36,881 bases of DNA from Candidatus Undinarchaeota archaeon (GTDB lineage Archaea; Undinarchaeota; Undinarchaeia; Undinarchaeales; UBA543). The notes below the pieces were generated by a model. It worked only from the letters and a program-made list of their open reading frames with translations. It had not been told where the DNA came from and made no database searches. Both the position numbers and the translations under genes were made by a program. Of the stretch, positions 25,512-27,889 are shown piece by piece (positions within the stretch are counted from its first letter, which is position 1; each line of letters opens with the position of its first letter). The stretch lies in assembly GCA_964567575.1 (NCBI GenBank), contig CAZMMZ010000004.1, forward strand, positions 27,931 to 64,811, written 5' to 3'.

Positions 25512-26021
25512 ATGATGGTACTTGTAGAGCTAGCGACACCGATTTTAGCATTCGCCTCCCGGATAGGCCGACCGGAGATAGCTCTTATGCTACTTGTTGC
25601 GGTTCTGATTTTTTTCGCTGAACTGGTTTTTTTCTTTGTTCCTGGGCTTTCATTATCAACTTTGTTTATTGCTATGGCTTGCATCAAATTCGGTTTTGTT
25701 CCTAGTTTAGCAATTGCAATCCCACCAATACTTATAGTTCATTTGTTTTACATGAAGAATCCGTCAATTGCAGTTGGTGATATTGTAACAATGGTGATAA
25801 TGGTTTTATTCGGATCCTACGCTGGGCCTTATATTATTAGTACAGTAGGCTGGGGCTTGTTCGGTTCTTTATTTGGATTTGTAAAATGGGGAACAATGAT
25901 ACTCACTAGTTTCATGTACGGTGGTAATATGGGAAAAAGAGTTCAGAATATATTACTAGAACCGATTTTTAATTTCTTTATATTTTGGAAACTGCGGTTG
26001 TTGTTTGGGTTTTTAATTTGA
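25512..26021 (+). CDS. Multi-pass membrane protein (ECF S-component-like size/topology possible)
   Basis: 169 aa with 5-6 hydrophobic segments; no motif firmly recognised. Confidence 0.55.
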   Translation: MMVLVELATPILAFASRIGRPEIALMLLVAVLIFFAELVFFFVPGLSLSTLFIAMACIKFGFVPSLAIAIPPILIVHLFYMKNPSIAVGDIVTMVIMVLFGSYAGPYIISTVGWGLFGSLFGFVKWGTMILTSFMYGGNMGKRVQNILLEPIFNFFIFWKLRLLFGFLI

Positions 26022-26045
26022 GAAAGGGTTTTTACACCCTCCCTC
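26020..26045 (-). terminator. Hairpin terminator-like structure of the rpl1-rpl10-small ORF transcript
   Basis: Minus strand GAGGGAGGGT-GTAAAA-ACCCTTTCTC forms 10 bp with two G-U pairs (A-C mismatches on the plus strand), 5 nt after the small ORF stop. Confidence 0.55.
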
Positions 26046-26050
26046 TAGAA

Positions 26051-26134
26051 TTATTTTTTGGACTTGCGTTCTTTTAATGCAACCTTTCGCTTTTTCTTAG
26101 CTTTTCGTTTTCGTGCGTTCTCAAGTTTACTCAT
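26051..26134 (-). CDS. 27-aa highly basic peptide, candidate small ribosomal protein (eL41/eS32- or bS22-like)
   Basis: MSKLENARKRKAKKKRKVALKERKSKK (15/27 K+R); the ATG overlaps the rpl10 stop (ATGAGTAA). Confidence 0.55.
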   Translation of the reverse strand: MSKLENARKRKAKKKRKVALKERKSKK

Positions 26135-27215
26135 TTGCTTCAGCTGGTTTTTCCTCAGTAGGTGCTTCTTCTTTTGGCTCTTCAGGTTTTGGTTCTTCTG
26201 CAGGTTTTTCTTCTGCTTTCTTTTCAGGTTTTGGTTCTTCTGCAGGTTTTTCTTCTGCTTTCTTTTCAGGTTTTGGTTCTTCTTTTGGAGCTTCTTCTGT
26301 TTTCTCTTCTGGTTTAGCTTCTTCAGCAGGAGCAGATTCTTCTTTCTTTTCTTCCGCTGGTTTCTCAGCAGGAGCATCCTTTACAAGAGATTTCAAAGCA
26401 CCCATTTCAGCAGTTGCTTTTGCTAGAACATCTCCAGCAGTTGCTTTGCAAAGAATCTTTGCTTCAGTTGCAAGAGCTTTTGCTTCTCTGTGGCTCTTCT
26501 GAACCAAGAAAGTAATGTTCTGAGCAGTTGGCATACCAATACCGATTGTCAATTTGAAGGTTCTCAATGCTGCGTTTGTCATATCCTCAACAAGTTGGTC
26601 AGTTGTAATTCCAAGAACATCAGCAGTATATACCATTCCATTTTCAAAAGCAGCTGCAAGATCAAGACCAATTTCCATTGGCTCGATTCCCATTTTTGCC
26701 ATTAAGTCTGCTTTTTTCTTGTCAATTTTTTCGCCTTCTTTTGCAAGAGTTGAATCTTCACGGATTATGACTTTTCCTTTGTCAATTGCTGCTTTAACAC
26801 CCATTGAACCAAGTTCACCGACAATTGGCCCTGGTGGGAACGGAGTGTCCCCTGCAGGAATAACAATGTCTTTTGGCATGATTGCCCCTGGTTTTGCAGG
26901 TGCTGTGGTTCGTGAGCTTCGGAGCTTGTTTGCAATCTTAAATGGATTTGCCTTAGTCATGATAAGTGCTGGCTCACCATTCAAATGCTCATCAAGACCT
27001 GTAATTCCAGCTTCTTTGAGAGCAACTTTTATCAAACGCTTTCGGGTCATTCGAATTGTTGCATCTGCTCTAAGACTGTGTTTAATTTGAAGGAGCTGTC
27101 TTGAAGGCAAGTCTTGGAAATTCAAAATTCCGACAATTGGATTTTCTTTAATTTCAGCAACAAGACTTTTTACTGTATCTTTTTTCCATTGTGAAACGGA
27201 TCCTTGTGTTTTCAT
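26127..27215 (-). CDS. rpl10: 50S ribosomal protein L10 / acidic P0 (uL10)
   Basis: WKKDTV, LPSRQLLQIK, RMTRKRLI, PAKPG, IPAGDTPFPPGP, MGIEPMEIGL; Glu/Lys/Pro-rich tail; ATGA overlap with rpl1. Confidence 0.96.
   Translation of the reverse strand: MKTQGSVSQWKKDTVKSLVAEIKENPIVGILNFQDLPSRQLLQIKHSLRADATIRMTRKRLIKVALKEAGITGLDEHLNGEPALIMTKANPFKIANKLRSSRTTAPAKPGAIMPKDIVIPAGDTPFPPGPIVGELGSMGVKAAIDKGKVIIREDSTLAKEGEKIDKKKADLMAKMGIEPMEIGLDLAAAFENGMVYTADVLGITTDQLVEDMTNAALRTFKLTIGIGMPTAQNITFLVQKSHREAKALATEAKILCKATAGDVLAKATAEMGALKSLVKDAPAEKPAEEKKEESAPAEEAKPEEKTEEAPKEEPKPEKKAEEKPAEEPKPEKKAEEKPAEEPKPEEPKEEAPTEEKPAEANE
26181..26283. repeat. 42-bp coding tandem repeat (2 full units + 19 nt) in the rpl10 tail
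   Basis: Unit TTCAGGTTTTGGTTCTTCTGCAGGTTTTTCTTCTGCTTTCTT at 26181 and 26223, partial at 26265; encodes a 14-aa EEPKPEKKAEEKPA repeat. Confidence 0.9.
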
Positions 27216-27889
27216 TGCTCTTCACCCCCATCATCAGCTTTAACTGGTGCGCCGATTTTAATGCTTTTACCCATTGTTGTTTTCACACAAACTGATCTGA
27301 TATTTTCTTCGTGTTTTGGAGTTTTTGAGTAAATCATTGAAAGAATAGCATCGATATTAGCAACTAATTGTTCATCGCTCATTTCTTCAGTACCGACTCG
27401 GCAATGAATAAGTGGCTGATTTACAATTCTGATTCTAACAAGTTTTTCCAAACGCTTGACAATAGCGTCAAGTGGTACATTTGGAGGAACTGGTTGAGGC
27501 ATCTTGTTTCTTGGGCCTAAAACAGCACCAAGAATTTTACCAATATCTACCATAAAATCAGTTTGCGCAACAAAGAAATCATATCCATTTGCAATTGTTC
27601 GTGTTTCTTTTTTGTTTGTTGCTAATTTAGAAAGTTCTGTTTTATCCAGAATTTTCTCAATTCCTGCTTTCTTTGCATTCTCTGCAGTTGCTCCGTCTGC
27701 GAAAGCTGCGATTTTAATTGGTTTACCGCGGCCGTGTGGGAGCACAACTTCTGCTTTGAATTTGTGTGCAGGGTTTTTCAAATCTAAATCTTTGAAGTTT
27801 ACAACTATATCAAGAGTCTGCTTGAACTTTCGTTCTTTAGAACCCTTTCTAACTAGTTTGATAGCTTCTTGTATGTCTTTTTGTTCCAT
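27212..27889 (-). CDS. rpl1: 50S ribosomal protein L1 (uL1)
   Basis: RKFKQTLDIVVNFKDLD, LPHGRGK, LGPRNKMP, HCRVGTEEM, VKTTMGK; SD GGAGG upstream. Confidence 0.97.
   Translation of the reverse strand: MEQKDIQEAIKLVRKGSKERKFKQTLDIVVNFKDLDLKNPAHKFKAEVVLPHGRGKPIKIAAFADGATAENAKKAGIEKILDKTELSKLATNKKETRTIANGYDFFVAQTDFMVDIGKILGAVLGPRNKMPQPVPPNVPLDAIVKRLEKLVRIRIVNQPLIHCRVGTEEMSDEQLVANIDAILSMIYSKTPKHEENIRSVCVKTTMGKSIKIGAPVKADDGGEEQ

Follow-up and report, generated by a model that had tools for sequence, protein, structure and literature searches.

The ribosomal protein eL41/eS32 is a helical, Lys/Arg-rich protein found at the subunit interface. Members of the bS22/mS38 family, which is bacterial and mitochondrial, carry motifs that presumably resemble those of the peptide described here (R-K-R ... 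K-K-K). eL41/eS32 is also non-essential and patchily distributed (PMC9932298), features that it shares with this peptide. With regard to gene arrangement, overlapping or abutting archaeal gene pairs are described in one study as translationally coupled through termination-reinitiation (PMC6728339), and coupled overlapping pairs are described in another as often encoding subunits of a single complex (PMC10666635). A preliminary description of the present locus had stated that archaeal operons usually run rpl1-rpl10-rpl12, and this held in our material, where most of the more distant archaea fetched have P1 starting just after P0. It is known that tiny polycationic proteins can be encoded in ribosomal-protein operons and escape gene callers, and the present locus is of this kind.

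The window, which is the whole 36,881-nt stretch of DNA that was analysed, comes from a DPANN-like small archaeal genome (G000; 745 kb in 18 contigs, 82% complete, 36% G+C). We identified in it a 27-codon ORF plus stop (26051..26134, minus strand) encoding a polycationic peptide, P0001, on the basis of its translation, five equal-length orthologues, pN/pS and a simulation. In the translated window the coding span runs from 26134 to 26054 on the minus strand, with the stop at 26053-26051. The 27 residues include 11 Lys, four Arg and two Glu, for a net charge of about +13. The ATG (26134-26132) is located inside the ...AAT GAG TAA that ends the P0/uL10 ORF, and the 8 nt shared by the two reading frames, ATGAGTAA (26127..26134, minus strand), were read from the sequence as a putative translational coupling junction. 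The claim of an ultra-basic 27-aa ORF starting within the rpl10 stop is therefore confirmed. The P0/uL10 gene (26127..27215, minus strand) encodes 362 aa with matches to PF00466 (Ribosomal_L10) and PF17777 (RL10P_insert), has a tail rich in E, K, P and A, and does not have the GLGALFG end. It is preceded by the uL1 gene (27212..27889, minus strand; PF00687), which has an ATGA overlap with P0 and an SD-like GGGGGTGA at the junction. Correctly spaced SD-like motifs precede both rpl1 and rpl10; no SD motif was found 5' of the peptide ATG.

Four further orthologues were available for comparison. Two came from same-genus genomes examined beside G000 (G001 and G002), and two (L098 and L099) came from close P0 relatives in a large protein collection, which were traced to their contigs; a metagenome scan with P0 added only L040, a duplicate of G001. 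Together with the window they make up the alignment of five distinct orthologues, A2. The ATGAGTAA overlap is also present in G001, G002 and L099. In L098, a 2-nt indel puts a TAA immediately 5' of the ATG, altering the P0 C-terminus while ATGAGTAAACTT is kept, which suggests that the small ORF, and not the P0 end, is what selection has maintained. In all five orthologues, the peptide ATG thus either overlaps the P0 stop or directly follows it.

A hairpin lies 5 nt 3' of the peptide stop (26020..26045, minus strand), with 10 bp, including two G-U pairs, on the minus-strand RNA (RNAfold, -16.3 kcal/mol). It pairs better on the minus-strand RNA, since A-C mismatches replace the two G-U pairs on the plus strand. 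This upholds the earlier statement that the hairpin of the operon follows the small ORF and not rpl10, with the qualifier that it is situated exactly between two convergent genes. The convergent gene, taken from the ORF list, encodes a 169-aa membrane protein (25512..26021, plus strand); it bounds the unit, lies outside the element and terminates in the hairpin, and its oligo-T at 26054-26059 overlaps the last Lys codons of the peptide. This run, the sole oligo-T near the hairpin (window 26020-26059), serves the plus-strand gene, and the rpl10 strand has no T-run after the hairpin. The hairpin is conserved in L098 and G001, and in L101, a member of the same clade discussed below, it is found directly 3' of P0; it is missing from G002 and L099. 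G000, G001 and G002 have different convergent neighbours downstream, and the peptide remains attached to P0. No gene overlaps the peptide ORF in antisense in these three genomes.

The orthologues provide good evidence that the ORF is a protein-coding gene under selection. Each of the five has exactly 27 codons, with no indel in 81 nt, whereas the adjoining P0 tail varies in length, and 12 residues are invariant. The shared pattern consists of an MSKL start, R-[KR]-R-K, KK-[RH]-K, Leu or Met at position 20, and Lys at positions 21 and 24. The DNA of the orthologues differs at 23-32 of the 81 sites (28-40%), and arginine positions that are invariant or conservatively replaced use CGA, AGA, AGG and CGT. 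In the ORF frame, the Nei-Gojobori method gave a pS of 0.70-1.07 (saturated) and a pN of 0.22-0.26, and hence a raw pN/pS of about 0.25-0.33 that is seen in this frame only, the two other frames giving dN/dS values of 0.4-3.9. As a yardstick, the raw pN/pS of the P0 core in the same genome pairs was 0.15-0.29, so that the peptide appears to be about as constrained as its ribosomal neighbour. We also simulated the divergence by placing the observed substitutions at random positions and counting both the openness of the frame and the amino-acid changes. The simulated frame stayed open in 26-47% of trials, but an open frame with as few amino-acid changes as observed was obtained in only 5e-5 to 4.5e-3 of trials (P<=0.0045), statistics that rest on few independent contrasts among five mutually related sequences. 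Frame, length and a synonymous excess confined to the ORF frame are what is expected of a protein-coding gene under purifying selection, and we consider it very probable, from these comparisons, that the 27-codon ORF is a real coding gene. Conservation and dN/dS downstream of rpl10 in relatives had been suggested as a check in the preliminary description, and the five orthologues and their pN/pS support its view of an unannotated coding sequence that is under selection and attached to the rpl1-rpl10 unit.

The distribution of the gene is narrow. In the P0 tree, a genus-level clade with 100/99 support has a basal split between G000 and L098 on one side and a group with L099, G001 and G002 on the other. 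Peptide-bearing lineages occur on both sides of this split, indicating that the gene predates the clade. No convincing orthologue was found beyond the clade in 14 other genomes of the phylum or in the outgroups L103 and L104. Weak profile matches in the order and phylum (E 0.03-0.3; 17 genomes) were rejected, as they fall within unrelated frames and have no start. With the same tool, the eL41 ORF, which is just as short, could be followed over three families, and the narrow range of the peptide is therefore not just an artefact of sensitivity. No copy of the peptide occurs among the ~15 billion predicted proteins of the collection, and its ORF has never been called as a gene. Within the clade, L101 (P0 70% identical; L101:1960-2050) has a 287-aa P0 with no acidic tail and no peptide. 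A DNA alignment of this region (A4) shows that L101 retains the last ~10 nt of the peptide ORF, the stop and the hairpin, which is consistent with a single deletion having removed the P0 tail together with most of the peptide ORF. This loss indicates that the peptide is dispensable, unlike core ribosomal proteins. In L102, where the P0 tail is kept, there is no peptide within the 68 nt available after P0, and the L100 contig ends too early for the peptide to be scored. The peptide family is new and has no detectable relatives, and its origin appears to lie within a single small lineage of archaea. With regard to a source for it, we considered the P0 tail repeats read out of frame, and local DNA alignment of the peptide gene with the tail was no better than with shuffles. 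A 6-mer, KVALKE, that the peptide has in common with P0 residues 63-68 was dismissed as coincidence, being encoded by different codons and found in G000 only.

P0 and P1 of this order have features of their own. P0 is without the GLGALFG factor-binding end in every family of the order (window 26127-26400, minus strand; L005-L012), and the P0 tails are long, E/K/P-rich and of very different lengths; P1 retains GLGALFG. At L100:2420-2466, a TAA stops P0 and tail-like sequence carries on in frame to the contig end; on this short contig, the TAA could be a true premature stop, could result from an error in sequencing or could mark a readthrough context. The sequence L071 (JAFCCF010000013.1), which is titled 'Candidatus Aminicenantes bacterium', encodes an archaeal P0 (41% identical) and is probably mis-binned or mislabelled. 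The placing of the peptide in the "rpl12 slot" stands as far as its position after P0 is concerned, but P1 is not missing: it is encoded on another contig, C8 of G000, as a canonical 96-aa protein with the GLGALFG end (L001:1465-1755, minus strand). Identity of the peptide with aP1/rpl12 was rejected, since there is no PF00428 (Ribosomal_60s) match and P1 is elsewhere in the genome. P0 is likewise not followed by P1 in the other families of the order, whereas P1 follows P0 in more distant archaea. Directly after P1 we observed a 127-aa ORF (L001:1081-1464, minus strand) with a four-Cys zinc ribbon and a Lys/Arg-rich C-terminal tail, which gave weak Zn-ribbon Pfam matches only.

Searches of Pfam, NCBIfam and the PDB with the peptide and the profiles A1 and A2 gave no match (PDB, E<=10). 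An archaeal eL41 HMM was built from nine archaeal eL41 ORFs, with composition-matched shuffles as controls. It scored three of the peptides at -4.8, -2.2 and -4.5 bits, and between 23% and 91% of shuffles scored as well or better. When A2 was compared by hhalign with the alignment of the order's own eL41 (A3), the probability was 2.2%. Pfam PF05162 had no match at the locus, and kinship with eL41/eS32 was rejected on the HMM, hhalign and PDB results as well. Kinship with bS22/mS38 was rejected in turn, as PF08213 (COX24_C) found no match at the locus in G000, G001 or G002 at E<=10 and hmmscan returned none; in the control for PF08213, the true bS22 of a Corynebacterium genome passed the cut-off.

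The genome has a separate eL41. By scanning short K/R-rich ORFs we found an uncalled 35-aa ORF, P0122, at G000:C1:77525-77629 (minus strand; L107:1001-1108, minus strand), which scores above 999 of 1000 shuffles with the eL41 HMM and has its own TATA-like upstream sequence. It is conserved in G001, G002, G004, G006, G009 and G012 and spans three families of the order (A3). The A3 profile matches the solved archaeal eL41/eS32 chains 6skf_Bk, 6sw9_0 and 9fny_A2 with E values of 7e-9 to 2e-8, and Pfam PF05162 misses P0122. On these profile comparisons P0122 is the true eL41/eS32 orthologue of the genome, and the peptide is therefore not filling in for a missing eL41. The RWKW core of eL41 is eroded in the G000 genus, where it reads RWRT or RRRT. 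In another small-genome archaeal family, in the phylum of G024, we observed well-conserved eL41 ORFs (L092, L093, L068, L095-L097) with an apparent GTG start and an N-terminal extension, VKTSHPWKK..., which are probably unannotated too.

Other explanations of the locus have to be set against these data. The ORF could be non-functional, a purine-rich 3' untranslated region conserved for its cis elements (terminator, hairpin, oligo-T of the convergent gene), with a frame left open by composition. Composition alone did keep the simulated frame open in a good share of trials, the last ~10 nt and the hairpin are conserved in DNA even in the ORF-less L101, and the ORF has no SD and no gene call. However, composition would not bias substitutions so strongly to synonymous sites in the ORF frame only, nor keep five lineages free of indels next to a P0 tail of varying length; moreover, the two alternative frames carry 2-3 stops and the start region was preserved through the L098 indel. 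We therefore regard this explanation as unlikely. It is far less likely still that the peptide is no separate protein and that frameshifting or stop-codon readthrough adds it to the C-terminus of P0, even though in G000 its reading frame extends upstream without a stop through the P0 tail (a 108-aa ORF) and in L098 only a single TAA separates P0 from the peptide in the same frame. The relative frame is +1 in four of the orthologues and in frame in L098, so that no single recoding event is conserved, whereas the ATG does not vary. Moreover, no fused, peptide-like C-terminus occurs among the 120 P0 homologues that were fetched. Equally hard to credit is a highly diverged homologue of eL41/eS32 or bS22/mS38, the kinship put forward in the preliminary description and also the subject of the HMM/HMM comparison that it proposed. 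Size and charge are similar, and visual inspection places position 12 (W in G001) and position 20 (L/M) 8 residues apart, the spacing of W and L in eL41. Against this, the eL41 HMM scores fall within the shuffle distribution, the hhalign probability is as low as stated above, PF05162 and PF08213 miss the locus, the PDB profile search gave 0 matches for A1 and A2, and the genuine eL41 gene is elsewhere. The proposed bS22/eL41-like identity was thus not supported.

A functional but non-ribosomal peptide is harder to set aside. Such a peptide could pair with the acidic P0 tail through matching charge, act as a general nucleic-acid binder or chaperone, or serve as a small regulator of the rpl1-rpl10 message. 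The evidence of coding selection applies equally to such roles, the charge of the peptide adjoins a strongly acidic P0 tail, L101 lost tail and peptide in one deletion, and a dispensable peptide of narrow distribution would fit. A role as tail partner is weakened by the other families of the order, which have long acidic P0 tails and no such peptide, and by L102, which has the tail and no peptide in the 68 nt after P0. We hold a non-ribosomal function to be possible but rather doubtful. The reading that we prefer is a genuine, clade-restricted gene for a 27-residue polycationic, RNA-binding protein, coupled to P0 and most plausibly an accessory protein associated with the ribosome; taken as a whole, we rate it slightly above an even chance. 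The peptide gene would be co-transcribed with rpl1-rpl10, and ribosomes that have terminated on P0 probably reinitiate at the peptide ATG, a coupling that we infer because there is no SD and, in each orthologue, this ATG either overlaps the P0 stop or directly adjoins it. The conserved overlap or abutment and the lack of an own SD are features by which the two genes would count as a translationally coupled pair, and the output of the peptide would then be tied to that of P0. The most likely activity, stated speculatively, would be RNA binding as a short basic helix, given that the 27 residues carry a net charge of about +13. The operon makes the ribosome the most plausible site, where the peptide would most plausibly be an accessory, dispensable protein. 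That it binds the ribosome, given that the gene is real, is a speculative proposal whose chances we put somewhat below even, on the circumstantial grounds of operon position, coupling and charge. A core ribosomal role is weakened by the restriction to one genus-level clade, the loss in L101 and the lack of a homologue. Sequence evidence alone would not separate a ribosome-associated role from another one. A more specific version, in which a newly born, lineage-specific ribosome-associated protein arose from the rpl10 3' region at the base of the genus, is reinitiated together with P0 and binds rRNA, is no better than a tentative suggestion; it may be set beside the erosion of the eL41 RWKW core in this genus and the order's P0 without a factor-binding C-terminus.

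Common gene callers set a length limit that genes of fewer than 30 codons do not reach. The present peptide is missing from ~15 billion predicted proteins, yet its selection signature is as clear as that of its ribosomal neighbour, and the lineage's real eL41 is likewise shown to be unannotated and missed by Pfam. If the peptide is bound to the ribosome, it would represent a rare and datable gain of a lineage-specific ribosomal protein in reduced archaeal genomes, with one branch losing it again, and its expression would be tied to that of the stalk protein. A non-ribosomal peptide would still add a new family to the archaeal small proteome.

In comparison with known systems, the peptide and aP1/rpl12 (PF00428) are alike in occupying the slot directly downstream of P0, but their sequences are unrelated and their charges opposite. 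With bS22/mS38 (PF08213) it has in common that it is a tiny polycationic peptide; that family is bacterial and mitochondrial, and PF08213 does not match the archaeal peptide. The likeness to eL41/eS32 (PF05162) lies in size (25-37 aa compared with 27 aa), in extreme positive charge and in being missed by gene callers. The peptide differs in being K-rich and not R-rich, in having no KKKGR..RWKW core and no detectable sequence relationship to eL41, and in its age, as eL41 is ancient and the peptide is confined to one genus-level clade. As for archaeal coupled overlapping pairs, the overlap here is 8 nt, the commonest being 4 or 1 nt, and the coupling proposed here is read from sequence features. 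In the respects described in the two studies of such pairs (PMC6728339, PMC10666635), the locus is like them: stop and start overlap or abut, the second gene has no SD of its own, and both genes belong to the same operon.
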